Source of the DNA: a virus
Direction: 5' to 3' (one strand)
Virus record (IMG/VR): IMGVR_UViG_3300042507_004023
DNA: 64,000 nt
Below, in pieces: positions 26,276 to 63,166 of this stretch. Each line of letters starts with the position of its first letter. Position 1 is the stretch's first letter. A model generated the notes under the pieces. The model was not told the DNA's origin and made no database searches. It saw only the letters and a list, made by a program, of their open reading frames with translations. The position numbers and the translations under genes were made by a program.

Positions 26276-27781
26276 ATGGAACTCTTCGGCTTAAAAATTG
26301 AGCGGTCGAAGAAGCAGCAAAGCGACTTCAAGGCACTAAAGTCTTTCGTAGTTCCAACTACGGACGACGGTGCTATTCCAGTCGAAGCAGGCGGCTTCTA
26401 CGGTCAATACATTGATCTTGACGGATCGGTTCGTAACGATTACGAACTGGTTGCGAAGTATCGTGAAATGTCAATGGATCCGATCTGCGAAACCGCAGTA
26501 GATGATGTGGTCAACGAATCTATTGTTTGTGAAGGAAAGCGATCTCCTGTTAAAATCTTTTTTACAAGTGATCTAAAACTTGGCGAACCAATCAAAGACA
26601 AGATTCAAGAGGAGTTTAAAAACATCCTCAGAATCATGCAGTTTGAAACCAAGGGTTATGAAATATTTCGTCGTTGGTATGTGGACGGTAAAATCTACTT
26701 TCATATCATCAATGATGAGAAGAAGCCAGAAAAGGGCATTCTCGAACTTCGGTTTGTTGATCCACTAAACATTCAAAAGATCAGAGAGTTTGAAAAAGAA
26801 ACTCGCAAAGACGGCACGAAAATTATCACGGGTTATCGTGACTTTTACATCTACAACAAGGACAACCCTCGTGCTGGCGGCAACGCTTCTGGCATCAAGA
26901 TTAACGATGATGCCATTGCATTCTGTTCTTCGGGTCTATTCGACAGCCGATACCGCAGAACTGTTGGTTTCATGCACAAGGCTATCAAGCCGCTAAACCA
27001 ACTCAGAATGATGGAAGATGCTGTAGTCATCTATCGTATTTCTCGTGCTCCTGAACGCCGCATCTTTTACATAGATGTTGGTTCGCTGCCCAAGACCAAG
27101 GCAGAGCAGTATGTGAAAGACATCATGGGTAAGTATCGTAACAAACTAGTTTACGATGCCAATACTGGCGAAATTCGTGATGATCGTAAGTTTATGAGCA
27201 TGTTGGAAGACTACTGGCTACCTCGTCGTGAAGGCAGCAAGGGAACTGAAATCAGCACTCTGAGTGGTGCTCAGAACCTTGGAGAACTGACCGATGTGGT
27301 GTATTTCCAAAAGAAACTGTATAAGGCTCTAAATGTTCCTGTGTCTCGTTTGGAGCAGGACAAGGGATTCCAACTAGGCAGAGCCGCAGAAATTAGTCGA
27401 GATGAACTGAAATTTAATAAATTTGTGATTCGTCTACGCAACAAGTTCAGCGAAATATTCTATGATCTGCTACGCAAGCAACTCTTGATGAAAGGTATCA
27501 TCAAGCAGGACGATTGGGCAGGATTGAAAGAATGCGTATTCTTTGACTTCCTGAAGGATAGTCACTTTGTAGAACTTAAAAATCAAGAACTTCGTAAGGG
27601 AATGTATGAGGAACTGAGTCAAGTTGAAAAATACATAGGTAAGTATTATTCACACTATTGGATTAGAACTCAGGTGCTTGGTATGAGTGAAGCACAAATT
27701 AAAGAAATGGACAAACAAATCTCGACGGAACGCAACGCAGGTTTGTATGCTCCCGACAATTCAGTGTTCGGTTTACAGTAA
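26276..27781 (+). CDS. gp20: Portal protein gp20
   Basis: MELFG, FRRWYVDGKIYFH, KAIKPLNQLRMMEDAVVIYRISRAPERRIFYIDVG, EDYWLPRREG. Confidence 0.98.
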   Translation: MELFGLKIERSKKQQSDFKALKSFVVPTTDDGAIPVEAGGFYGQYIDLDGSVRNDYELVAKYREMSMDPICETAVDDVVNESIVCEGKRSPVKIFFTSDLKLGEPIKDKIQEEFKNILRIMQFETKGYEIFRRWYVDGKIYFHIINDEKKPEKGILELRFVDPLNIQKIREFEKETRKDGTKIITGYRDFYIYNKDNPRAGGNASGIKINDDAIAFCSSGLFDSRYRRTVGFMHKAIKPLNQLRMMEDAVVIYRISRAPERRIFYIDVGSLPKTKAEQYVKDIMGKYRNKLVYDANTGEIRDDRKFMSMLEDYWLPRREGSKGTEISTLSGAQNLGELTDVVYFQKKLYKALNVPVSRLEQDKGFQLGRAAEISRDELKFNKFVIRLRNKFSEIFYDLLRKQLLMKGIIKQDDWAGLKECVFFDFLKDSHFVELKNQELRKGMYEELSQVEKYIGKYYSHYWIRTQVLGMSEAQIKEMDKQISTERNAGLYAPDNSVFGLQ

Positions 27782-29424: not shown

Positions 29425-30072
29425 ATGAAACTATTCTGCGACATTAACGAGGAAATTCAAGTTCTAACTGAAGAGAACGAGCCAGGTAAGAAAAACTACT
29501 TTATTGAAGGCATCTTCCTGATGTGCGATCAAAAGAATCGCAACGGTCGTGTCTATACCTTTGAAATGATGAACAAGAAGGTTAACGAGTATAACAACAG
29601 TTTTGTAAAGCAAAAGAGAGCGTTCGGTGAATTGGGACACCCCGAGGGCCCAACCATTAACCTAGAGCGTGTCTCACATATGATTACTGACCTTTACTCC
29701 GATAAGAAGAACTTCATAGGTAGAGCCAAAATTATGGACACCCCATACGGTAAAATTGTTAAAAATTTGATTGATGAGGGTGCAAAACTAGGCGTTTCAA
29801 GCCGTGGTATTGGTTCTTTGGAAGAAAAGAACGGCGTAAACTATGTGAAAGACGATTATCAGTTAGCCACGGCTGCGGATATTGTAGCCGATCCATCGGC
29901 TCCAGAAGCCTTTGTAAGAGGTATTATGGAAGGAAAAGAATGGATTTGGGAAAGTGGCAGATTGGTAGAAAGAGATCTAGAAGAAATTAAAAAGAGCATT
30001 CAAAAAGCCTCTTCCCGAAAACTAGAAGAAACAAAAATTCAAGCATTTGAAAGGTTCTTACGGAATCTTTAA
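29425..30072 (+). CDS. gp21: Prohead protease gp21
   Basis: IEGIFL..DQKNRNGRVY, GELGHPEGPTINLERVSH, LGVSSRGIGSL, ADIVADPSAPEAFVRGIMEGKEW. Confidence 0.97.
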   Translation: MKLFCDINEEIQVLTEENEPGKKNYFIEGIFLMCDQKNRNGRVYTFEMMNKKVNEYNNSFVKQKRAFGELGHPEGPTINLERVSHMITDLYSDKKNFIGRAKIMDTPYGKIVKNLIDEGAKLGVSSRGIGSLEEKNGVNYVKDDYQLATAADIVADPSAPEAFVRGIMEGKEWIWESGRLVERDLEEIKKSIQKASSRKLEETKIQAFERFLRNL

Positions 30073-30122: not shown

Positions 30123-31229
30123 ATGGACTCATTTAAGAACGAAGAAGTAGAAGAAATCCTCGAAGAAGAGGAAACCACAACCGAAGCAGCACAAACTGAT
30201 TCGGAAGAAGTAGTCGTAACAGACGAAGAAACCATCGAAGAGGATTCGGCTGCTACTTTGAAGGCTAATGTTGCCGCAAAGCAAGCCAAGGGAGATAAGA
30301 CTAATCTTAAGTCTGCTCCTGCCGCTGCTGGATCATCAAAGTATGCGGGTCTTTACAAGGATGGAACAGGTAAGGGAGTTGTAATTCCTGAACCAGTTGC
30401 CACCGATGGATCTGCTTCTGCCGACAAGCAAATGAAGTTGGTGGACGCAAAGCGTTCTGGTAAGACTGAAGGAGTTCAAGTTCATATGGACGCTATGTTC
30501 AATGGAGAAGAACTAAGTGAAGACTTCAAGAACAAGGCTTCTACCATTTTTGAAACCGCTCTCAACGAGCGTGTTCAAGTTATTGAAGCCGAAATTAAGG
30601 CTGAATACGAGAATCGTCTCATCGAACAAACTGAAACGATGAAGACTGAACTCACTCAGCAACTTGATTCATACCTCTCATATGTTGTAGAGGAATGGAT
30701 GGAAGAAAATAAACTTGCTGTAGAGAAGGGTCTACGCACTGAAATCGCTGAAGAATTTATTGAAGGTCTTCGCGGTCTCTTCTTGCAGCATAACATTGAA
30801 GTCCCACAAGGCAAGACTGATCTGCTAGATCAAATGGCAGAGAAGGTTGAAACTTTGACCGCTTCCTTGAATGAAGAAATTAATAAGACTCTCGACATGA
30901 AGAACAAAATTGCTGAACTTGAAAGACAACAACTAGTTGCTTCAATGAGTGAAGGTCTTGTTGATACCGACAAGGAGCGTTTCTTAAAGTTGGCGGAAGG
31001 CGTTGGGTTTGAAACCAATAACGAGTTCCGTTCCAAGTTGGAAACAATCCGCGAATCATACTTCGGAGACTCAGGCAAGACCGTATTGAATGAGAATGTC
31101 GAAGATGATATGACGGTTGCAGAAAATGCCCCCGCGAACGAACAAGAAACCTTGTCCGAATCAATGGAAGCATACTCACAGATGTTGTCTCGCTTGAGCC
31201 GCACAAAGGCTCCAAGCAAGAAGAACTAA
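30123..31229 (+). CDS. gp22: Prohead scaffolding protein gp22
   Basis: LSEDFKNKASTIFETA, VDSYL.YVVEEWMEENKLAVEKGLRTEIAEEFIEGL-type motif, KLETIRESYF. Confidence 0.95.
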   Translation: MDSFKNEEVEEILEEEETTTEAAQTDSEEVVVTDEETIEEDSAATLKANVAAKQAKGDKTNLKSAPAAAGSSKYAGLYKDGTGKGVVIPEPVATDGSASADKQMKLVDAKRSGKTEGVQVHMDAMFNGEELSEDFKNKASTIFETALNERVQVIEAEIKAEYENRLIEQTETMKTELTQQLDSYLSYVVEEWMEENKLAVEKGLRTEIAEEFIEGLRGLFLQHNIEVPQGKTDLLDQMAEKVETLTASLNEEINKTLDMKNKIAELERQQLVASMSEGLVDTDKERFLKLAEGVGFETNNEFRSKLETIRESYFGDSGKTVLNENVEDDMTVAENAPANEQETLSESMEAYSQMLSRLSRTKAPSKKN

Positions 31230-31276: not shown

Positions 31277-32689
31277 ATGGAACTCACTATCTCAGAAGCC
31301 CTACAGAGCAAGTGGAAGCCAGTGCTTGAGCACCCAGAACTTCCCGACATCTCTGATCCATACCGCAAGGCGGTAACAACGATTCTCTTGGAGAATCAGC
31401 AGCAATATCTACGCGAAGATGGCCCATCAAACATCGGCTCGAACCTTGACGGTGGCGTAGCCGGTGGCAACTCAAATGTTGCTCGTTGGGATCCAATCCT
31501 CATTTCGCTCGTTCGTCGTGCAATGCCAAATCTCATTGCTTACGATGTATGCGGCGTTCAACCAATGAGTGGCCCAACCGGTCTTATCTTTGCTCTACGC
31601 AGCCGTTACAACAACCAGTTCGGTGACGAAGCCCTATTCCAAGAAGCCAACAGCCGCTTCTCAGGTAAGGCTGCTACCGGTCTAACTGGCGCAGGTCTCG
31701 GTCAAACCGCAAACTTCGGTGGCGTAACCGCAACTGATACTGATCCGTTCTATAACGGTGTCAACGCTGGTTTCACCGCAGGTAACTTCGGTCTAGATCC
31801 AAACGGCGACCCATTCTTGGGCACAGCAATGTCAACCAACACAGGCGAAGCCCTTGGTTATCCAAACGGTTCACAAGCCTCAGGCTCACAGTTTGCACAA
31901 ATGGCATTCTCAATCGAGAAGACCACTGTGACTGCTCAGACCCGTGCGTTGAAGGCAGAATACACAATGGAATTGGCACAAGATCTTAAGGCTATCCACG
32001 GTCTTGACGCTGAAACCGAACTCGCCAACATCTTGTCGAGTGAAATTCTTGCCGAAATCAACCGCGAAGTCGTTCGTCGCATCTATGTGTCAGCCAAGTT
32101 GGGTGCTCGCTCAGGTCTAACTCAGACCACAGGCGTGTTCGACTTGAATGTTGACTCGAACGGTCGTTGGTCAGTCGAGAAGTTCAAGGGTCTGCTCTTC
32201 CAAATGGAGCGCGAGTGCAATCAAATTGCCAAGGAAACCCGTCGTGGTAAGGGTAACTTCGTCCTCTGCTCGGCAGATGTGGCAAGTGCTCTAAGCATGG
32301 CAGGCGTTCTTGACTACGCTCCAGCCCTCTCAACCAACCTCAATGTTGACGATACAGGCAACACCTTCGCTGGTGTTCTCAACGGTCGTCTCCGCGTCTA
32401 CATCGACCCATACGCTTCACAGACAGCAACTCACGAGTTCTTCTGCGTTGGCTATAAGGGTTCGAGTCCATACGATGCTGGTCTCTTCTACTGCCCATAT
32501 GTTCCTCTACAAATGGTTCGTGCAGTTGGCGAGAACTCGTTCCAGCCAAAGATCGGATTCAAGACTCGTTACGGTCTAATCCACAATCCATTCGTATTGA
32601 ACTCAAGCGGTCAGGTAACAAGCGATCTCGATGCTACAGTTCGTCGCAACATGTATTATCGTATCGTCAAGGTCACAAACCTCTTCTGA
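31277..32689 (+). CDS. gp23: Major capsid protein gp23
   Basis: DPILISLVRRAMPNLIAYDVCGVQPMSGPTGLIFA, RALKAEYTMELAQDLKAIHGLDAE, FQPKIGFKTRYG; TATAAATA at 31232. Confidence 0.99.
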   Translation: MELTISEALQSKWKPVLEHPELPDISDPYRKAVTTILLENQQQYLREDGPSNIGSNLDGGVAGGNSNVARWDPILISLVRRAMPNLIAYDVCGVQPMSGPTGLIFALRSRYNNQFGDEALFQEANSRFSGKAATGLTGAGLGQTANFGGVTATDTDPFYNGVNAGFTAGNFGLDPNGDPFLGTAMSTNTGEALGYPNGSQASGSQFAQMAFSIEKTTVTAQTRALKAEYTMELAQDLKAIHGLDAETELANILSSEILAEINREVVRRIYVSAKLGARSGLTQTTGVFDLNVDSNGRWSVEKFKGLLFQMERECNQIAKETRRGKGNFVLCSADVASALSMAGVLDYAPALSTNLNVDDTGNTFAGVLNGRLRVYIDPYASQTATHEFFCVGYKGSSPYDAGLFYCPYVPLQMVRAVGENSFQPKIGFKTRYGLIHNPFVLNSSGQVTSDLDATVRRNMYYRIVKVTNLF

Positions 32690-42530: not shown

Positions 42531-42571
42531 AGGCGTTCCTCCTGTTTATTTATGAAAACCTAAATACCAAG

Positions 42572-43453
42572 GTGAAAACATTTAAACACTATCTTGAAGA
42601 AAAACTCGTTATACCAGGTCAAGGAAAGCGATACGGTCAAGTTGTCTTTTTGGCTGGCGGTGCAGGTTCGGGTAAGGATTTTGCTGTAGCCAATTTTATA
42701 GACTCCACAGACTATAAAATCCTTGATCCAGACGCGGTAAAAGGACCGTATTTAAAGTGGAACGAACTACAAAAAAAATATCCTGAACTTAGAGGCAGAG
42801 ATCAAAGAAATCCTGAGGATGCCGACTTTGTTCATAGGTTTTTGGGAAATCAAGTTAAACTAGACGATAAAATATTGAGTAGTTTCTTTTTTGGTTTGAT
42901 GCATAAAACAGATAAAACCACGCTTCCCAACATTTTGTTTAACAGAACTTTCAAAACAAAAGCAGACTTTGAGCGATTGTTGCCAAGTCTAATTTCGGTG
43001 GGTTACAAAAAAGAAGACATGCACTTAATTTGGGTGCTAACAAACTACAGAGTTGCAATTCAAGCAAATCTTGAAAGAACTAGAACGGTTCCAACAACCG
43101 TATTAGTTCAAACGCATGGTGGCGCAGCACAAACCATGAAGAGTTTTTTGTTTGATAACTATCCATCTAATCTGATAAATGGAGATGCGTATGTGATTCT
43201 TGGCGGTAAAGAAAATACCATATTTTTCAAACCACCACAAGGCGCATCAACCACAAGACAGGTGGTTGCTGGCGGTGAAATAATTCCAAAACCTAGAGTG
43301 GTTTCAAAATTTCAGTATGTTAAAGTCAAAGACGCAAGCCATCCGTTTAAACCCGCTGTGGCTTTATCGAACACTGTTCTCAGATGGATACTTCAAAATT
43401 CTCCCGATCAAGAAGCGATAGAAAAATATCTGAGTCAACAAAACTCCAACTAA
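42572..43453 (+). CDS. P-loop kinase (zeta-toxin/AAA_33-like) with capsid-targeting-like leader
   Basis: VFLAGGAGSGKDF Walker A, ILDPDAVK; N-terminus MKTFKHYLEE; CTAAATA 5 nt upstream. Confidence 0.7.
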   Translation: MKTFKHYLEEKLVIPGQGKRYGQVVFLAGGAGSGKDFAVANFIDSTDYKILDPDAVKGPYLKWNELQKKYPELRGRDQRNPEDADFVHRFLGNQVKLDDKILSSFFFGLMHKTDKTTLPNILFNRTFKTKADFERLLPSLISVGYKKEDMHLIWVLTNYRVAIQANLERTRTVPTTVLVQTHGGAAQTMKSFLFDNYPSNLINGDAYVILGGKENTIFFKPPQGASTTRQVVAGGEIIPKPRVVSKFQYVKVKDASHPFKPAVALSNTVLRWILQNSPDQEAIEKYLSQQNSN

Positions 43454-46832: not shown

Positions 46833-47339
46833 ATGAATCAACTTTTTAAATTTACAAACCTAGCCTCTGCCAAATTCGTGGTGGAACGCCTTCTCAGCAT
46901 GGGCATTAAAGCCGAGGGTTTGCCCTCTGGCTACATTCGTGTCTTTGACTTGACCGAAGGGGCTAAAAAGGTGATAAAAGACAGTTTAGGCACTCATGTT
47001 GCCGCTACTGGTGTGGAAGATTTAAGTCTAGCAAAGCATGCTGGCACAGGACAAGGCAAAAAGAAACTTGCTCCCAAAGTTGAAAAACCAAAGTCTCCTC
47101 CAACCGCCAACAGTAAAACTTTACCCAAGACGGGCAAAACTGTTAAAGCACAAACCGGCAAAGATGTGGAAGAAGCCACAGCACCCACAAAATCTAATGA
47201 GCCTAAGGTTTCTCCTGAATCTCAAAAGATGTCTAATTTGCAAAAGATGGCTTACGAGACTTTAAAGAAACTAGTGGAAAAGAATCCAAAAGGGTTTCCT
47301 CGTCTTGCCAAAATGATGGGGATTAAAGTTAAGGCTTAA
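46833..47339 (+). CDS. Basic Lys/Pro-rich late protein
   Basis: CATAAATA at 46805, GGGG SD; low-complexity K/P/T/A middle. Confidence 0.6.
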   Translation: MNQLFKFTNLASAKFVVERLLSMGIKAEGLPSGYIRVFDLTEGAKKVIKDSLGTHVAATGVEDLSLAKHAGTGQGKKKLAPKVEKPKSPPTANSKTLPKTGKTVKAQTGKDVEEATAPTKSNEPKVSPESQKMSNLQKMAYETLKKLVEKNPKGFPRLAKMMGIKVKA

Positions 47340-48018
47340 GAAGTTTGATTACTTCGCTAGCCGTATCCACAAGGCAATCTGTTCGTTTAGATATGGTGTA
47401 AGAACCATCTGCCGGTGTTTCTAACTGTATGGCAGTTTTTACGCCATGTGAAACTAGATGTTCAGCAAACATTCCGTTTGGAGCGGTATGTTTTGCTCCC
47501 TCTGTGAGCGGAAAGTGTTGTTTCAGTTTGATTTCAATACGCTCTTCTAATTCTAGAGATGCTTTCCAACCGTAAAAATAGCAGATAAATCTTTTCGGAT
47601 CTTCTTGTAGAGAAATGTATCCTTCTCGACTAAGATTAATCAAAGTTTCAAGATTATCATTTAACACAATTCCCTCAGGGGTTTGTGTGTTGGGCCAACC
47701 ACGATCAACATTTTTGCCGTAATCGTTTCTATGCTGTCGAGATTTAAAACATGCAGGAGAAGCATAAGGTAAAAATGATACTTGACTGAAAGTTTTGCAC
47801 AGCACTTTTGATGCCGCCCATCCAGCAGGCTCATCTCCTTGCCAGCCAGAAGACACCAAAATTCTGTTTGGCGATTTCGATTCAAACAAATAAATTGGAT
47901 TACCGTCCACTACCCCAAGTTCTCTCATTTCGTGAGTCTGTTTGGTTAGATAAGAAAATTCTGAAATTTCTTGCTCGTATTGCCGAGTCTGATCTAAGTG
48001 ATCGCCAAAGGTTTTCAT
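47329..48018 (-). CDS. M14-family (carboxypeptidase/desuccinylase-like) fold protein with His-to-Gln substitutions
   Basis: ILVSSGWQGDEPAG, NVDRGW, ISLQED, IQLETP; N-terminus MKTFGDHLDQ. Confidence 0.6.
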   Translation of the reverse strand: MKTFGDHLDQTRQYEQEISEFSYLTKQTHEMRELGVVDGNPIYLFESKSPNRILVSSGWQGDEPAGWAASKVLCKTFSQVSFLPYASPACFKSRQHRNDYGKNVDRGWPNTQTPEGIVLNDNLETLINLSREGYISLQEDPKRFICYFYGWKASLELEERIEIKLKQHFPLTEGAKHTAPNGMFAEHLVSHGVKTAIQLETPADGSYTISKRTDCLVDTASEVIKLLKP

Positions 48019-52858: not shown

Positions 52859-52883
52859 ACTAAAATTTAAAGTTTTACCTGCG

Positions 52884-52915
52884 AACAACCCTCATTCACG
52901 AGGGTTGTTTCTTTT
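52884..52915 (+). terminator. Rho-independent terminator
   Basis: AACAACCCTC-ATTCAC-GAGGGTTGTT plus T-rich tail. Confidence 0.8.
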
Positions 52916-52941
52916 CCTAAATATTCGAATAGGAGGTTGTC

Positions 52942-53289
52942 ATGTATACTGAAGAGCGTCCTTGGGGCAATTTTACAATTTTATACGAAGACCAGAACAT
53001 GAAGGTGAAGCAAATTATTGTTCATGCAGGTCAAAGATTGAGTTACCAATATCATAAGCACCGCCAAGAGCGATGGACAATTGTGGAAGGTGAAGGAGTA
53101 TTCACCTTGAATGGCGTAGACCGTGCGGTGCGTTCTGGTGATGTTTTAAGCATTGCGGTTGGTGACGCGCATCGCATCAGAAATACAGGCAAAGGCAACT
53201 TGATTTTTGTGGAAGTGCAGTTGGGCGAATCTTTTGCTGAAGACGACATCTACCGTATAGAGGACGATTATAACCGCGCTAGCACATGA
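52942..53289 (+). CDS. Cupin, mannose-6-phosphate isomerase type II C-terminal domain-like
   Basis: ERPWGNFTIL, KVKQIIVHAGQRLSYQYHKHRQERWTIVEGEG, HRIRNTG..LIFVEVQLG....EDDIYRIEDDYNR; CTAAATA at 52917. Confidence 0.9.
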   Translation: MYTEERPWGNFTILYEDQNMKVKQIIVHAGQRLSYQYHKHRQERWTIVEGEGVFTLNGVDRAVRSGDVLSIAVGDAHRIRNTGKGNLIFVEVQLGESFAEDDIYRIEDDYNRAST

Positions 53290-53699
53290 AATCATTCAAG
53301 CACCATCTCTCAGAACAGGATGCAACTCCAAAACCTCGTGGCGAGTATTTCGTCAGTCGCTTTAACATTAGCGGAACTGTTGTGAGTGCTGTCGCTGTAT
53401 ACGAAAGACCCATCAAGAACTACAAGTATAAAACTAAAGTTTGGAGATGGCGGGTTCGTATAAAGACAAGTGAGGGGTGGATGCTGATGGGCTTTATCGG
53501 AAATGGACAACGACAGGAAGAACTGCCTCCGCTTCGTGTTGGAGATGTTGTGGAGATTAGAGACCTTGTTTTGTCTAGAGTCACGGGTGGAGATTGGGCA
53601 CAACAAAACAAGGTAATCGGCAAACCTCTTGATTACCGTTCCAACCTGTTCTCTCGTCAACTACACGGCAAGATTAAAAGAGGTGCAACCTCTGTATGA
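53286..53699 (+). CDS. Putative capsid-internal protein (CTS leader), possible OB fold
   Basis: MKSFKHHLSE leader; PLRVGDVVEIRDL. Confidence 0.6.
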   Translation: MKSFKHHLSEQDATPKPRGEYFVSRFNISGTVVSAVAVYERPIKNYKYKTKVWRWRVRIKTSEGWMLMGFIGNGQRQEELPPLRVGDVVEIRDLVLSRVTGGDWAQQNKVIGKPLDYRSNLFSRQLHGKIKRGATSV

Positions 53700-54469
53700 A
53701 ATCATTCAAGCACCATCTTGCAGAAGCAATCGCAAATCCAACTATCTGTGATTTGCTTAAACTGCCTACCGCTAAAGCGTTTATTGAGCGACTTGAAATA
53801 TCCAAAGACCTGAAAGCGTATTGGAATGCGTTAAACCTGTGGTTTGACCAAAGTGGCGACACAAAACGGTTCATGGGCAAGATTGTTGAGATGGGTATGT
53901 GCCCAAACAAAGCGAAATGGGCTTCTTGGTCTGGCAAAGGATATCGCGGATTAACCAAACCAAAAGAGTGGGCAAAAAAGTTACAGTATACTGGCGAAAC
54001 TGTGGTTAAAGAGAAATATCTTTTTTTGGTAGCAAACGCAACCTATCAAAGCCGATATACAGCCCAATCTTGGACAAACGATTTTGCTGTTGCTATGTCG
54101 TTTGCTAACAGCGATCTAGACATTCCTGTAATAATGGAAATTGAACTAACTCGTGAAAATACTTTATTCTCTCCTGAATCAAGCGTAACGCTTAGTGGTT
54201 TTGGAGAAGCGGAAATTATACGAGTAGGCAATAGACCCACAAAAGTTAAGGTGTATGTGAATATACAATTTATGATTGAATTCTTTTGCTACAGGATATT
54301 GGGAAACGGAGGAACTAAAGGAGTTCCTAAAGCAGAACAAACCTCTTGGTGGACGAAACAATTTGAAGGATTATTTTCTCAACTTGGTGATGAAAAGTTT
54401 GTGAAAGACCTTATGTCTAATCCTAAAATCAAAGCAATAATTAAACGAGAAGCAAAGGTTAGCATATGA
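53696..54469 (+). CDS. Putative capsid-internal ADP-ribosyltransferase-like protein A
   Basis: MKSFKHHLAE leader; YRG ... QSWT ... A..FA ... GEAE (R-S-ExE). Confidence 0.65.
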   Translation: MKSFKHHLAEAIANPTICDLLKLPTAKAFIERLEISKDLKAYWNALNLWFDQSGDTKRFMGKIVEMGMCPNKAKWASWSGKGYRGLTKPKEWAKKLQYTGETVVKEKYLFLVANATYQSRYTAQSWTNDFAVAMSFANSDLDIPVIMEIELTRENTLFSPESSVTLSGFGEAEIIRVGNRPTKVKVYVNIQFMIEFFCYRILGNGGTKGVPKAEQTSWWTKQFEGLFSQLGDEKFVKDLMSNPKIKAIIKREAKVSI

Positions 54470-54936
54470 AATCATTCAAGCATCATCTCACCGAACTATT
54501 TGACCAACCGTTTCCGTTTGCGTCTTCTTCAATTATAAATGGCGATGTGGTGAAGTATGTGTATAGAAACGATGCTACCTTTGTGGTTATAATGTTTTTT
54601 GACCTTGGTAACGGAGGTTGGGATGTGATATTCTCACGAAACGGTAAGGTTGCTGTAACAGGACAAGGTGATGCTGGTCGTGTGTTTGCTTCCGTGTTAG
54701 ACGCATTTCAACGATTCTTGCGGGACTATAAGGATAAAGCAGACACCATTAGTTTCACGGCTGAAAAGCAGGAACTAAATCCTGCAACAAGCAAGTATAC
54801 TACAGATTCTCGTGTTACGCTGTATAAGGCTATGATTAAACGATATGCGGAAGCAAACGGATATCGGATGCGAAGCAACATTCCGATATCAGGAATGGGC
54901 AAAGGTAAACAACTGTTCGTGTTGGAGAAAATATGA
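54466..54936 (+). CDS. Putative capsid-internal protein (CTS leader)
   Basis: MKSFKHHLTELFD leader; TGQGDAGRVFASV...ISFTAEK...SRVTLY. Confidence 0.6.
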   Translation: MKSFKHHLTELFDQPFPFASSSIINGDVVKYVYRNDATFVVIMFFDLGNGGWDVIFSRNGKVAVTGQGDAGRVFASVLDAFQRFLRDYKDKADTISFTAEKQELNPATSKYTTDSRVTLYKAMIKRYAEANGYRMRSNIPISGMGKGKQLFVLEKI

Positions 54937-55742
54937 AGTCTTTTTTCTCATTCATTAACGAAGCGGTGGAAAGCGGATTGCGAGATTCCGACTATAATCC
55001 CGATTGGCATGAACCTGAGTGGGTTAAAACTCATAAGCCTAGTGTATGTGATTTGTTGTCGGAACCCACACCAGCAATGATGGTGATTGGAACAAAACTT
55101 GTGCAAAAAACAGGAGATCCTTGGTTTCAATACGCACCTAGCGAAACCGTAAAATTTTTGCAAGCGTTGCAGTTGCATTTAACTCAAGTTGGTGGAGATA
55201 AGGGTATGGGGTCAGTAGGTATAGGATTGGTAAGAGCAGCCGCGAATTGTTCTCGCCGCGCTTCTTGGAGCATGACTTCTGAGAAACGCTTGTGGCGCGG
55301 TAAAGGAATCACACTTTCCGAAGCAGTCAGATTACTTAGAGGCAAAAAACATCACACCTCAACAATTTCTGGTGTTGGCTATTGTGTTGGAGTGGATGAA
55401 ATTTACACTTCCAAGTATCCTATACAATCGTGGAGCACAAATTCGCAAGAGGCAGTAGAGTTCGCATCAGGTGCTAGAAAGAATGCTGGAACTTGGTATC
55501 TTCCTCGCGTAACAGACGGCATGCTTAAGAAAGATAACCCTAGCGTTTGGTGTGTAATGGAGTTGACTGATTTCAAACCACAGGAAACCTTGTTTGGAGA
55601 ATTCCGAGGATATCCTGTCAGTAAATCTGTATCTCGTCTAGAAGAAGATGAAACAATCAGAATTACCAATCGTCCAGTTAAGGTTCGTTATTGGTTTTTA
55701 CAAGAACAGTTTGAAGACATGTTGCTTGCAGGACTATTATAA
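54933..55742 (+). CDS. Putative capsid-internal ADP-ribosyltransferase-like protein B
   Basis: MKSFFSFINE leader; WRG ... QSWS ... A..FA ... EEDE. Confidence 0.62.
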   Translation: MKSFFSFINEAVESGLRDSDYNPDWHEPEWVKTHKPSVCDLLSEPTPAMMVIGTKLVQKTGDPWFQYAPSETVKFLQALQLHLTQVGGDKGMGSVGIGLVRAAANCSRRASWSMTSEKRLWRGKGITLSEAVRLLRGKKHHTSTISGVGYCVGVDEIYTSKYPIQSWSTNSQEAVEFASGARKNAGTWYLPRVTDGMLKKDNPSVWCVMELTDFKPQETLFGEFRGYPVSKSVSRLEEDETIRITNRPVKVRYWFLQEQFEDMLLAGLL

Positions 55743-55746
55743 TCTT

Positions 55747-55878
55747 ATGAAATCTTTTAAACAACACATTTCTGAAAAGTGGACGCAATCGTATAAGCGT
55801 AGCATTGATTGTAGCCGACCAAAAGGCTTTTCGCAGCGAGCACATTGTCAAGGCAAAAAGAAGCGAGCAGGCAAATGA
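55747..55878 (+). CDS. 43-aa capsid-internal microprotein with Cys pair
   Basis: MKSFKQHISEKWTQSYKRSIDCSRPKGFSQRAHCQGKKKRAGK. Confidence 0.7.
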   Translation: MKSFKQHISEKWTQSYKRSIDCSRPKGFSQRAHCQGKKKRAGK

Positions 55879-56810
55879 AAGACTTTGAAGTGTTCTCGGA
55901 GGAAACCAACAATGCTCGCACCGAGCGGATTGTAAAGAATCTGTTGCCTGCCATTAGAAACGGTGACATGAACGCGCAAATATGTGCGATTGCATCACTT
56001 GAATTTGGAGACTTCATGCACTTCCTACGAGCACTCGGTGGAAACATAGGCCCATCAGGAACTGTGATAAATCTTGGTTCAACTGGCGCACACATCTACA
56101 CGCTTATAAATGAAAAAGAATCAAAGGATATAATGTATTTTTGTGCTTATCTGCGTAATCATCTGTCTGCTTTTTTTGGTGATTTAGCAACCACAGCGTC
56201 GGTAAACTTGAAAAATCGCTACTATCCTACATTTAAATCCATGTTGGATTGTTCATCTCGTAAATCTTGGACAAAACCAGAATCAGGGTTTGTGTATCGT
56301 GGAAAGGCTACAGGCATTTCATATCTTGCAAAAATGGGTGAGTGGCGCACCGAAGGCGAGTATTCGGTATGCAAAGGCAGTTACACAAGTCAGTATCCCA
56401 TGCAATCTTGGTCGTATAGCAGAACAAAAGCGGAACTGTTTGCTGATACGCGAATTGGTGATATATCGTTATGGATAGACCGTCTTGGTGAGATTGGTGG
56501 AATAGGCAAAGAAGCAGGCGGCGATTGGGAGAAACAGGTATTGAAACAAACTCAACCGCTAGGCATACAACGAGGCGATTTGGCTGTGCCTGTGGTGATT
56601 CGGTGTCCTGTGAATCCACGAGAATTCTTGTTCTCTGCTGACTCAAGCGATAAAATTAAAGTAGCCTTGAAATTGTTTACTAAAAACACGAAAGAACGAG
56701 AAACGGTGCGAGTTTCTAGTCAACCTGTTGCTGTGGAATACATGGTTAAAAATGTTAAGGGTGTTGACATGAAAACAGCGATTGCACAATGGCGAGAAGC
56801 CAACGGATAA
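55875..56810 (+). CDS. Putative capsid-internal ADP-ribosyltransferase-like protein C
   Basis: MKDFEVFSEE leader; YRG ... QSWS ... A..FA ... KERE. Confidence 0.62.
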   Translation: MKDFEVFSEETNNARTERIVKNLLPAIRNGDMNAQICAIASLEFGDFMHFLRALGGNIGPSGTVINLGSTGAHIYTLINEKESKDIMYFCAYLRNHLSAFFGDLATTASVNLKNRYYPTFKSMLDCSSRKSWTKPESGFVYRGKATGISYLAKMGEWRTEGEYSVCKGSYTSQYPMQSWSYSRTKAELFADTRIGDISLWIDRLGEIGGIGKEAGGDWEKQVLKQTQPLGIQRGDLAVPVVIRCPVNPREFLFSADSSDKIKVALKLFTKNTKERETVRVSSQPVAVEYMVKNVKGVDMKTAIAQWREANG

Positions 56811-56871
56811 TATTTAAAAATTAACACAGTCTAGGTAAAACCCTAAATACCATACCAACAGGAGAATTGCC

Positions 56872-57516
56872 ATGTCAGGAAACGCACGAAGACTAGCCGA
56901 AGCCGCAAATCAGATTATTAACTCACAGCCTATTAATGAAGCCTATAAAGCCGGAGACAAGGTAAAGGTTCCACACAAGGGCAAGATGGTAAAAGGCAAG
57001 ATTGTTCGCTACGATGATGGCGGAACAGACAAGGCAAGACAGTCGGGTGGAGGATATGTGGTGGATGTTGGTGAGCCTGCAAGCATCCTAGTTCCTGCAA
57101 ACAAGGTGGTTAAAGAAGCCGCAAATCAGATTGATGAAATAAGTAAAGCAACCAAGGATGCGTATGTCGCCAAGCGTGGCTCACAACTCTCATCCATGTT
57201 GAGCGGACATACTAAGGGCAAGCAACTCACAGGCAAGCAGCAAGCCAATGCCGTGAAGGGCATCAAGCAGGCTATGGGTGTGAAGGAAGAAACTGCTGAG
57301 ATTACTGAAGCACCATACACTCCTGCTAACGATTACGAAGGTGAAATGGCAATGACTCAACTAAAGTCGGTTATTGAAAAGGCAACCGAGACTCTTGCAA
57401 TGCTGAAGCCAGAAGCCAAAATGGAAGCATGGGTGCAAAGCAAGATTACCTTGTGCGACGAGCATATCTCGTGCGTTCGTGATTATTTAAAGCACACACC
57501 AGGTGCGGTGAGTTAA
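56872..57516 (+). CDS. Modular late head protein with repeated (L/I/V)-x-E cleavage-type sites
   Basis: LAE, INE, VKE, IDE, ITE linkers; C-terminal DYEGEMA..QL...EAWVQSKIT module; CTAAATA at 56843 and AGGAG SD. Confidence 0.65.
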   Translation: MSGNARRLAEAANQIINSQPINEAYKAGDKVKVPHKGKMVKGKIVRYDDGGTDKARQSGGGYVVDVGEPASILVPANKVVKEAANQIDEISKATKDAYVAKRGSQLSSMLSGHTKGKQLTGKQQANAVKGIKQAMGVKEETAEITEAPYTPANDYEGEMAMTQLKSVIEKATETLAMLKPEAKMEAWVQSKITLCDEHISCVRDYLKHTPGAVS

Positions 57517-57813
57517 ATGAACAAAAACTACGAACAAATCTTGGAGTCGGCTGATGCGGCTTTAGCCCGCTTAAACGAACTATACTATCGTAAAGCACAT
57601 CCAACCAATCCGATTCTCATTCCTGCAAAGCGAGTATACGACGAGTTTTTCAAGTATGTGAAGAATAGCGGGATCATGTTCAACCAACTCAAAGCGGAAC
57701 AGGCGGTTGAAGAGGTGTTTCGTGTTCGTCAATCAACGAGGTCGTCAGGCAGCACAGGAGAACTAGTGATGACTGCTTTTTTGGTTTACAAGCGATATAT
57801 GGGAATTAGTTAA
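57517..57813 (+). CDS. Hypothetical late protein (possible internal protein)
   Basis: MNKNYEQILE...RLNE; abuts the previous stop. Confidence 0.55.
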   Translation: MNKNYEQILESADAALARLNELYYRKAHPTNPILIPAKRVYDEFFKYVKNSGIMFNQLKAEQAVEEVFRVRQSTRSSGSTGELVMTAFLVYKRYMGIS

Positions 57814-57964: not shown

Positions 57965-57992
57965 TTGACAAAACTGTAAAATCGGGTATAAT
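57965..57992 (+). promoter_or_regulatory. Consensus sigma70-like promoter TTGACA-N16-TATAAT, 7 nt before ATG 58000
   Basis: Perfect hexamers. Confidence 0.85.
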
Positions 57993-57999
57993 TGAGGAT

Positions 58000-58410
58000 A
58001 TGGCTACTCATCCTCTCAGCGTTCTTGTTCTTGACGATGATTCGCAGCGACACGCTGCTTTCGTGGCAAACAATCCGAATTGTCAGGTTCATTCGGTTTA
58101 CACCTGCAAGGAGGCGGTGGCTGCGATATACGATCAGCATTTTGATGTGATTTGCTTCGATCACGACTTGGGATGGAACACCGAGCAGAACACCTACGAG
58201 ACCTCTATTCCGTTCGCACAAACGGTGCGTCGGTTGATTGATGAGGGCGGCATTCTTGATTCCGTAATCATGTTGGTGCATTCCGCAAATCCTGTGGGGG
58301 CTCAAGACATTCTGAGTTACTTTGCGAGAACCATGAATCACTCATTCAAGGTTCCGTGGGCTTGGCGAATGCCGAATCTGTTTCACACCATTTGTGCTGA
58401 TGGAACTTGA
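58000..58410 (+). CDS. Cyclic-phosphate-processing receiver (cREC)-like domain protein
   Basis: VLVLDDD, FDVICFDHDLG, HSANPVGAQDI. Confidence 0.75.
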   Translation: MATHPLSVLVLDDDSQRHAAFVANNPNCQVHSVYTCKEAVAAIYDQHFDVICFDHDLGWNTEQNTYETSIPFAQTVRRLIDEGGILDSVIMLVHSANPVGAQDILSYFARTMNHSFKVPWAWRMPNLFHTICADGT

Positions 58411-61888: not shown

Positions 61889-63166
61889 ATGACCACCGTT
61901 TCTACTCTTGGCAATCGTGCGGCCGCTCAGGTCGCTTTCATTCACGCCGCTCTCGCTCTCACGAACGGCTCGCCCGTTGTGACCCGCGAGCAAGTTCTGC
62001 ATGCCGCTCGCAAGGCGGGTCTGCCGAATCCGGCGTGGCTCACCAACAATCCAGAATTCCGTGCGGGTCGCGGCAAGTATCGCATTCCCGCCGACAAGAT
62101 TGCGCTGGCTTCCGCTAGTGCGATGCCGAAGTCGCGTCCTGCGGCTACGGCTACCCTGAACACTCCCGTCAAGTCTGCTGCACCGGTGGTCGCTTCGGCG
62201 GCTTCGACGGGTTCTCCTCTCGTGGACTCCACTCTCTCGCTCGCGGCGATTGCAGAGTGCGGTAACGCGATTCCTGAAAAGGATTCCCTCTTCGTGGCTT
62301 ACGGCCACTACGATACGGTGAAGCGTATCATCGGCTCGACCCGATGGGCTCCCTCGTATGTGGTTGGCCCCTCGGGCTGCGGCAAGACCTACGCTTACCA
62401 GCAGGCCTGTGCGGATTTGAAGCGTGAATACTTTGAGGTGCAGATCACCACGGAAACCACCGAAGACGATCTGCTCGGCGGCTTCCGTCTTGTGAACGGG
62501 GAAACCAAGTTCATCTACGGCCCTGTTACCCTCGCCATGATGCGTGGCGGCTTCCTGGTGCTCGACGAGATCGACCAGGCCACGAGCAAGGTGATGTGCC
62601 TTCAGCAGGTTCTCAACGGCAAGCCGGTGTTTCTGAAGAAGATCAATCAGTGGGTGAAGCCTGCTGCGGGCTTCAATGTGGGAGCAACCGCGAATACCAA
62701 GGGCAACGGCGATGATACGGGTCGCTTCGTGGGTGCGAATCCCTTGAATGTGGCATTCCGTGATCGTCTGAGCGGCATGTGCTTCGTGGCGGATTATCCC
62801 ACGCCGACCGTCGAGAAGAAGATTCTGAACAAGGCCATGTCCGCCGCAGGTGTGGACGACAGCGAATTCGCGGGTCTGCTCGTGGATTGGGCGGGCATGA
62901 TTCGCAAGACGAACCGCGAGGGCGGCCTGGACGAAACCATGACCACGCGACGGTTGGTGCAGATCGCTCAGAATCTCAGCATTCTCGGTGAGCGCACCCT
63001 TGCGGTGGAACTCGGCATCAACATCTACGACGAGATCACCCGCGAGGCGATGCTGTCTCTGTTCCAGAAGATTGATCCCGCGAACGCTCCGAAGAGCGAT
63101 ACCCTCGGTCAGGCTCCGCAGGAAGCGACCGCAGCGAACACGCCTAGCACCAAGTGCCCGTTCTGA
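61889..63166 (+). CDS. MoxR/CbbQ/CobS-like AAA+ ATPase
   Basis: VGPSGCGKT Walker A, EDDLLGGFRL, LVLDEID Walker B, ATANTKG.GD..GRFVG.N.LN.AFRDR, MTTRRL. Confidence 0.88.
   Translation: MTTVSTLGNRAAAQVAFIHAALALTNGSPVVTREQVLHAARKAGLPNPAWLTNNPEFRAGRGKYRIPADKIALASASAMPKSRPAATATLNTPVKSAAPVVASAASTGSPLVDSTLSLAAIAECGNAIPEKDSLFVAYGHYDTVKRIIGSTRWAPSYVVGPSGCGKTYAYQQACADLKREYFEVQITTETTEDDLLGGFRLVNGETKFIYGPVTLAMMRGGFLVLDEIDQATSKVMCLQQVLNGKPVFLKKINQWVKPAAGFNVGATANTKGNGDDTGRFVGANPLNVAFRDRLSGMCFVADYPTPTVEKKILNKAMSAAGVDDSEFAGLLVDWAGMIRKTNREGGLDETMTTRRLVQIAQNLSILGERTLAVELGINIYDEITREAMLSLFQKIDPANAPKSDTLGQAPQEATAANTPSTKCPF

Follow-up and report, generated by a model that had tools for sequence, protein, structure and literature searches.

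A putative late operon of leader-tagged genes, probably encoding head-internal proteins, in an uncultured T4-like myovirus

The 64,000-nucleotide stretch of DNA analysed here in full (hereafter the window) belongs to IMG/VR virus record IMGVR_UViG_3300042507_004023, and its source is a divergent, uncultured T4-like myovirus. Between positions 52917 and 57813 it contains two putative late transcription units, which probably encode head-internal proteins: eight genes in a row, named g1 to g8 below, whose products carry all or part of a short N-terminal leader resembling the capsid targeting sequence (CTS) of phage T4. All the elements described in this paragraph lie on the plus strand. A terminator-like hairpin (52883..52910), formed by an 11-bp stem and a T run, closes the preceding transcription unit and is followed by a late-promoter-like CTAAATA (52917..52923). 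The first gene of the operon is a leaderless cupin (52942..53289), after which come g1 (53286..53699), g2 (53696..54469), g3 (54466..54936), g4 (54933..55742), g5 (55747..55878) and g6 (55875..56810). A second CTAAATA (56843..56849) precedes g7 (56872..57516) and g8 (57517..57813). ATGA stop/start overlaps were found at 53286 (cupin/g1), 53696 (g1/g2), 54466 (g2/g3), 54933 (g3/g4) and 55875 (g5/g6), and g4 and g5 are separated by 4 nucleotides. Thus the genes are indeed mostly joined by ATGA, as a preliminary description of this region had stated; its claim that they lie downstream of a late promoter applies to the CTAAATA at 52917, with the amendment that the leaderless cupin comes first and that g7 and g8 have a CTAAATA of their own.

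The six N-termini that had been quoted for these genes were found in place and letter for letter: MKSFKHHLSE in g1, MKSFKHHLAE in g2, MKSFKHHLTE in g3, MKSFFSFINE in g4, MKSFKQHISE in g5 and MKDFEVFSE(E) in g6. The last gene starts at ATG 55875 and not at TTG 55845, considering the ATGA overlap with g5 and a database gene call (P0059) that begins with MKDFEVFSEE. The leader consensus reads M-K-S/T-F/Y-x-x-H/F/Y-L/I-x-E and spans the 9-10 N-terminal residues. More specifically, the leaders in the window keep Lys2, Ser/Thr3, Phe4, His/Phe7, Leu/Ile8 and Glu10, and are variable at residues 5, 6 and 9. The full pattern (an aromatic residue at 4, hydrophobic residues at 7/8 and Glu10) fits g1 to g5 and one gene outside the array, at 42572. 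In g6 the leader is present, but its site is F-S-E at residues 7-9 instead of [LI]xE at 8-10. The two further genes that had been said to carry such sites, g7 (MSGNARRLAE↓AANQI; the arrow marks the predicted cut) and g8 (MNKNYEQILE↓SADAA), have LAE and ILE exactly at residues 8-10 and fit the leader at these positions only.

The leader pattern is not due to chance, since [LI]xE occurs at residues 8-10 in 8 of the 75 called genes, whereas the per-position background is 1.2% (binomial P = 4e-6), and since seven of these eight genes are consecutive. A comparison of the products after removal of their leaders was in line with the proposal that the bodies are either unrelated or paralogous. Only g2, g4 and g6 are interrelated (E 4e-10 for g4 to g2, 6e-4 and 4e-8 for the others) and every other pair has E > 0.1; therefore, the leader is common to at least five unrelated bodies. 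The predicted mature products are all basic, with an isoelectric point (pI) of 8.3-10.8, versus a pI of 5.5 for the leaderless, acidic cupin (PF01050, 5e-25). The latter is related to the C-terminal domain of mannose-6-phosphate isomerase, is found at the matching position in two related IMG/VR contigs (L001 and L002), and is probably not cargo.

A comparison with T4 reveals a close match. The T4 CTS reads MKTYQEFIAE (PMC8442874), and in the case of the T4 internal protein (IP) IPIII the ten N-terminal residues are enough for loading into the head (PMC9026906). Residues 4 and 7 mainly govern the targeting and residues 8 and 10 the processing (PMC9026906), and the window leader agrees with the T4 CTS at both pairs of positions. 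Moreover, a degenerate DNA pattern for the window leader picked up T4 ipII and ipIII, both of which start with MKTYQEFIAE, and the reversed control picked up none. On this sequence evidence the leader is most readily taken as a T4-type CTS. The same DNA pattern also matches T4 gp61.1 (NC_000866, 18966-19130, locus L015), a hypothetical protein of 54 residues that adjoins the primase gene and begins with MKTFKEFIKE.

The window also encodes the partners that a T4-type leader would need. A prohead protease of the gp21 type (29425..30072, plus strand; PHROG 207, 2.5e-78) is the predicted processing enzyme. It has the motifs GELxHP and GVSSRG, containing the His and the Ser, in common with T4 gp21, and its own N-terminus, MKLFCDINE↓E, parallels the LIE at residues 7-9 of the T4 enzyme. 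Indeed, it has been described that T4 gp21 itself carries an LIE ending at residue 9 (PMC9026906). The adjacent gene specifies a scaffolding core protein of the gp22 type (30123..31229, plus strand; PHROG 237, 1.7e-74), which has many [LI]xE sites and is the predicted dock for the leader. The suggestion that the leader is CTS-like thus gains from the presence of both genes in the same genome.

The presumed late character of the two units is based on our reading of CTAAATA as the probable late promoter of this phage. The heptamer has 19 copies in the window versus 9.1 +/- 2.9 expected, 17 of them on the plus strand, and the plus-strand copies mostly precede a gene start by a short distance, as is seen for the sheath, tube and scaffold genes. 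The late-promoter consensus of T4, TATAAATA, was considered as the late motif of the window and rejected, as it showed no enrichment (3 found versus 2.05 expected).

The most prominent cargo is formed by the three paralogues g2, g4 and g6, which are 26-32% identical. An alignment of these three with 12 metagenomic homologues showed R84 (in YRG), Y117, S119, Q124-S125-W126 and E171-x-E173 (g2 numbering) to be invariant in all 15 sequences. The catalytic motifs R84, S125 (QSW-S/T) and E171-x-E173 coincide with, or immediately precede, the strands predicted for g2 at 80-88, 123-127 and 174-177, which agrees with the placing of R, S-x-S and ExE in the ADP-ribosyltransferases matched by the model. 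The AlphaFold2 model of g2 has a predicted local distance difference test (pLDDT) score of 88.5, and nearly all of the top 50 matches obtained with VIA-align are ADP-ribosyltransferases (ARTs). The best match is the Vis toxin 4XZJ (4xzj_A; Z 7.0, root-mean-square deviation 3.5 A over 140 aligned residues, Foldseek probability 0.98), followed by Tre1 (6DRH, Z 6.6) and then by HopU1, C3, iota and VIP2. On the basis of the model and the motif, g2, g4 and g6 are thus R-S-ExE ADP-ribosyltransferases, as had been supposed for part of the cargo; g6 has a longer N-terminal region than its paralogues. ExE ADP-ribosyltransferases usually modify arginine, and by analogy the three proteins are predicted to be arginine-specific.

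This family is practically absent from the reference collections. None of 10 members of the g2/g4/g6 family gave a Pfam hit to an ART family; g4 and g6 had no Pfam or PHROG match, and g2 had no PHROG match and only a sub-threshold Pfam match to Tad6 (E 0.078). A tblastn search with g2 returned nothing among 50,697 phage records, and a phmmer/hmmsearch comparison of g4 with the sequences of the PDB returned nothing meaningful. Profile alignment with hhalign detected no homology to T4 Alt, ModA or ModB (probabilities of 1.5%, 0.1% and 2.6%). When 1.84 billion cluster representatives were searched with the family profile, 379 clusters (at 50% identity) were retrieved with E <= 0.001. The N-termini of 148 of the 150 representatives listed were examined, and 73 of the 148 start with MK. 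Among these 73 proteins, F/Y4 is found in 75%, L/I8 in 59% and E10 in 49%, and a hydrophobic-x-E motif ends at residues 9-12 in 53 of them. Some of the relatives begin with MKTYSQLIEA or MKTYFQLIEA, which closely resembles the T4 CTS. Two cysteines are also invariant across the family, C18, located in TICDLL right after the leader, and C69 (g2 numbering). A protein of 204 residues from an NCBI source (P0004) matches g2 over its C-terminal two thirds at 96% identity, has an unrelated N-terminus and lacks both the leader and the catalytic Arg; it may represent a recombinant or decayed copy of g2.

For g3 a GNAT-like fold is suggested by its AlphaFold2 model. The Foldseek matches are almost all GNAT acetyltransferases (best 3shp_B, 4.8e-4), and with VIA-align the GNATs, aligned over about 110 residues, score Z 7.0-7.9, although an RNase E domain scores equally high (Z 7.9). 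The residues G68-x-A70, nearly invariant and invariant, respectively, are found just ahead of a predicted helix (70-88), and in the motif Q/R-x-x-G-x-G/A, which binds the pyrophosphate of acetyl-CoA ahead of helix 3 in GNATs, the position of the Q/R is here occupied by Thr. The sole Pfam hint was to DUF6934 (E 0.0046, under the cut-off), and a search of the PDB sequences with the g3 family yielded nothing meaningful. An acetyltransferase activity is therefore best put as possible. In view of the GNAT-like matches, g3 was rejected as a kinase. A kinase-like protein, as had been listed among the cargo, is present not in the cassette but at 42572. A weak homologue of g3 is gp135 of Pseudomonas phage PA5oct (30% identity, E 1e-3), which begins with MHLFE↓LFDQ and is annotated as 'structural protein, ESI-MS/MS'. 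That g3 might be homologous to the T4 Alt N-terminus was also considered and rejected, since only seven residues at the cut are alike (LTELFDQ versus ITELFDE; E 0.81).

The other products of the two units are short and basic or have no recognizable fold. The 127-residue body of g1 has a pI of 10.4 and 23 metagenomic homologues, and gave no Pfam, PHROG or PDB match. In P0048 this body is present and the leader is missing, and in P0049 it follows an HNH_3 domain in a fusion. A search of the ESM Atlas gave scores of at most 0.87, with an OB-fold family at 0.78 that, for the OB-fold protein listed earlier among the cargo, may serve as a lead only. The g5 product has 43 residues in all; its body of 33 residues has a pI of 10.8 and two Cys, and is conserved in four related contigs (L001, L002, L006 and L009). 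The g8 product has 98 residues and is basic, and neither g5 nor g8 has a Pfam or PHROG match. The basic g7 protein contains the sequence E↓AANQI twice, at residues 10/11 and 82/83; if the protease cuts at both, as the repeat suggests, an SH3-like fragment of some 70 residues would be set free. The SH3-like Pfam hints are weak and below the gathering scores; there was no PHROG match, and the search of PDB sequences gave nothing meaningful. The homologue of g7 in L002 has the identical N-terminus. The g7 protein may be a cleaved cargo or a core protein.

Related leaders had also been reported at two positions outside the cassette, and one of these is real. The gene at 42572..43453 (plus strand, GTG start) specifies a protein that begins with MKTFKHYLEE and has the Walker A sequence GGAGSGKD. 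By its sequence it is a Zeta-toxin-like P-loop kinase, the activity of which is predicted (PF06414 with E 3e-5 and 24.0 bits versus a cut-off of 22.3, over residues 21-71 only; PHROG 5268). Its homologue KP15_200 of Klebsiella phage KP15 begins with MKSFKQFTE. A CTAAATA at 42560 ends only five bases ahead of the GTG start (42560-42574), so that either the mRNA is almost leaderless or the gene is transcribed from a promoter further upstream. The second gene (47329..48018, minus strand, start at 48018) has the leader-like variant MKTFGDHLDQ, in which a Gln at position 10 replaces the Glu of the cleavage site, and its status is uncertain. The protein has an ISE at residues 18-20 and a 55%-identical homologue in L001, and no late motif was found near the gene.

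The arrangement varies between relatives. Nine IMG/VR loci encode relatives of the ARTs and, with the pattern used, leader-bearing genes were found in all of them except L007. The arrays of the related contigs comprise between 2 and about 10 leader genes, and the strict leader DNA pattern gave 2-6 matches per contig, with none for the reversed-pattern control. The near-identical L001 has the cupin, g1, g2, g3, g5 and g6 and lacks g4, g7 and g8, whereas in L002 the order is cupin, g1, g5, g2, g3, g6, g7. In L008, which shares its contig with L002, four ART paralogues follow one another, and L006 has about ten consecutive leader genes.

In the comparison of the window with L001, both ends of the g4 indel fall within the leader codons, ATGAARTCTTTT, and at this site L001 reads ATGAAGTCTTTT, i.e. 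a start of the g4 type that is directly followed by the codons of g5. It follows that the indel begins and ends in the twelve leader bases that g4 and g5 have in common. In this single case, the leader codons thus appear to have acted as a recombination joint, through which cargo would be gained and lost as cassettes. The near-identity of g1, g2 and g3 at their starts, where 23 of 24 bases agree, is in keeping with such exchange. Recombination within the leader codons has long been proposed for the T-even IP loci. It is tempting to extend this to a whole clade of freshwater T4-like phages, in which the leader would be a portable, recombinogenic address tag that defines a large injected proteome recognizable from the sequence. 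This would be a first-strike set of enzymes, made up of three ARTs that differ in their targets, one acetyltransferase and one kinase, and swapped by crossovers in the leader codons. The g2/g4/g6 proteins would then represent a large unannotated ART family that is found almost exclusively as cargo with a capsid tag. This extension is tentative, and we would give it somewhat less than an even chance.

Taken as a whole, we consider it likely, with a probability of about 0.7, that the two late units specify head-internal cargo provided with a cleavable CTS. During head assembly the leader would dock the cargo onto the gp22 scaffolding core, after which the gp21-type prohead protease would cut behind the Glu of the leader. 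The basic mature proteins would be retained in the DNA-filled head and, at the next infection, would exit together with the DNA and act on targets in the host. The delivered set would comprise the three ARTs, the GNAT-like g3, the very small basic g5 and the products of g1, g7 and g8, which have no known fold, and, from elsewhere in the genome, the Zeta-toxin-like kinase. Each of these steps is proposed by analogy with T4; the anti-defence role that had been suggested for the cargo is at present purely conjectural.

Several observations weigh against this proposal. The structural matches are of medium strength only (Z 7-8), and the model of g3 is of moderate confidence (pLDDT 68.6). The products of g7 and g8 are without the MKSF part that the T4 data link to targeting, g6 has F instead of L/I at P3, and some g1 orthologues (P0044 and P0045) keep MKSF..HL and have lost Glu10. 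In Pelagibacter phage HTVC008M, which among cultured phages comes nearest in its capsid protein, the leader DNA pattern was not in excess. Furthermore, the position in gp23 that aligns to the T4 maturation site FLTE65↓A reads NLDG, and the closest [L]xE, YLRE47↓D, is located ten residues upstream of the aligned site. Because the T4 gp23 cut site is not conserved at the aligned position, gp23 gives no internal check on the specificity that is predicted for the protease.

The leader proteins might be loaded as supposed and yet be only components of the assembly or core, comparable to T4 gp67, gp68 and the internal peptides, that are degraded, are expelled or act as counter-ions of the DNA. The mature g5 product is a 33-residue, very basic peptide, the second, internal E↓AANQI of g7 is scaffold-like, g7 and g8 lack an enzyme signature, and the T4 core proteins are likewise cut at [LI]xE (PMC9026906); part of the set, namely g5, g7 and g8, may indeed have such a role. 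For the set as a whole it is unlikely, considering that the ARTs, the GNAT-like protein and the kinase have no obvious function within a capsid, and that in T4 both Alt and the IPs take this route and pass into the host on ejection (PMC9026906, PMC9503650). Moreover, the cassette is located far from the head-gene cluster and varies among close relatives, unlike essential core proteins.

The shared N-terminus itself could also be explained without any targeting, either as a by-product of tandem duplication or gene conversion, or as an mRNA element that aids translational restart at ATGA. Such an origin would account for the identity of 23 of the first 24 nucleotides of g1, g2 and g3, and for the fact that at most junctions, being ATGA, the downstream start is inside the coupling region. 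However, the peptide is kept with different codons in g4, g5 and distant relatives, and the leader is also present on genes that are not part of an ATGA array, i.e. the gene at 42572 and KP15_200. The bodies are unrelated, the protease has a similar N-terminus, and the conserved positions are those that T4 needs for targeting and cleavage, which makes this explanation highly improbable. Hardly credible, finally, is that the leader sends the proteins elsewhere (to the membrane, the periplasm or the tail/baseplate) or tags them for a different protease. The pairing of leader and protease was deduced solely from their co-occurrence, and this leaves some room for another destination; nevertheless, in the models the leader is short, charged and helical, without a hydrophobic core or a signal-peptidase site, and it matches the T4 CTS and no secretion signal.

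Delivery by a T4-type CTS, the reading that we prefer, places the cassette in a known context. It has been put forward that the T-even internal proteins form a diverse set in which the CTS alone is conserved (PMC3012670), that the CTS is perhaps an evolutionary device by which T4-like phages load various proteins (PMC9026906), and that head-packaged ARTs are common in myoviruses (PMC9503650). The claim of the preliminary description that this is a new system therefore does not hold, because these reviews already describe both the CTS-mediated loading of diverse proteins and head-packaged ARTs. Rather, the cassette is a larger instance of T4 CTS delivery, with new cargo families and in a lineage far from the T-evens.

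The likeness to the T4 internal proteins includes a leader of about 10 residues with Lys2, Ser/Thr3, an aromatic residue at 4, a hydrophobic or aromatic one at 7, L/I8 and Glu10. It further extends to genes that are presumably late, predicted mature proteins that are basic, a gp21-type protease and a gp22 scaffold, and to the variation of the cargo among related phages around a constant leader. Unlike in T4, none of the bodies in the window resembles IPI, IPII or IPIII. With eight genes in a row, and about ten in a relative, the array also exceeds that of T4 in length, and several of the cargos are enzymes instead of small DNA-associated or inhibitor proteins. With T4 Alt the three ARTs share that they are R-S-ExE transferases of a T4-like phage for which head loading and trimming by the protease, followed by delivery, are predicted. 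Around the cut T4 Alt reads ITE↓LFDE and g3 of the window LTE↓LFDQ. The window ARTs differ from Alt in their mature length (247-301 residues versus 682), in having an IP-type leader, in the presence of three paralogues in one operon, and in the lack of a detectable sequence relation to Alt, ModA or ModB.

A similar comparison can be made with the effectors of bacteria and other phages. The order of the catalytic Arg, Ser and ExE is that of the bacterial toxins Vis (4XZJ), Tre1 (6DRH), HopU1, C3, iota and VIP2, to which the g2 model aligns with Z 5.4-7.0 over 130-142 residues at 11-16% identity. Unlike these R-S-E toxins, the window ARTs have no secretion or translocation domains, and their delivery would proceed via the phage head. 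The effectors fused to MuF or portal proteins, and the polyvalent proteins of myoviruses (Iyer et al. 2022, PMC9503650), are likewise enzymes of conflict with the host, often ARTs, that are loaded into the capsid and reach the host along with the DNA. In the MuF and portal fusions the cargo is covalently joined to a structural protein, whereas the window cargo is encoded by separate small genes with a cleavable tag.

Since the principle is textbook T4 biology, the gain is one of scope and cargo and not of mechanism. Provided that the leader functions like that of T4, the proteins that uncultured phages deliver together with their DNA can be predicted from sequence alone, which would directly yield a list of candidate enzymes for host takeover and counter-defence. 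In addition, an ART family of sizeable extent (the 379 clusters) proves to be missing from Pfam, from the PHROGs and from deposited phage genomes, and the indel bounded by leader codons hints at the way in which cargo passes between phages.

The assignment of the window to the T4-like myoviruses is based on its gene content, which includes the large terminase, the tail sheath and tail tube, a gp41-type helicase, the late sigma factor gp55, gp46/gp47, the portal (26276-27781) and the major head protein gp23 (31277-32689). The nearest deposited phages are remote: gp46 is 45% identical to that of Synechococcus myophages (cyanomyophages), and gp23 is 61% identical to that of Pelagibacter phage HTVC008M. 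The DNA of the cassette had no megablast match among the 50,697 phage records.

Immediately past the cassette, at 58000-58410, a protein with a cREC_REC domain is encoded (PF20274, 3e-11). A perfect TTGACA-16-TATAAT sigma-70 promoter (57965-57992) lies ahead of this gene and presumably opens the next transcription unit, which would be an early one. The cRec domains have been counted among the components of phage conflicts that involve NAD and ADP-ribose (Iyer et al. 2022, PMC9503650). At 61889-63166, within a few kb of the cassette, there is a gene for a MoxR/CbbQ-like AAA_5 ATPase, homologues of which (44-48% identical) adjoin the leader-gene arrays in three other contigs (L003 42-1313, L004 3839-5191 and L006 982-2280). 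Toward the end of the window the GC content climbs to 57%.

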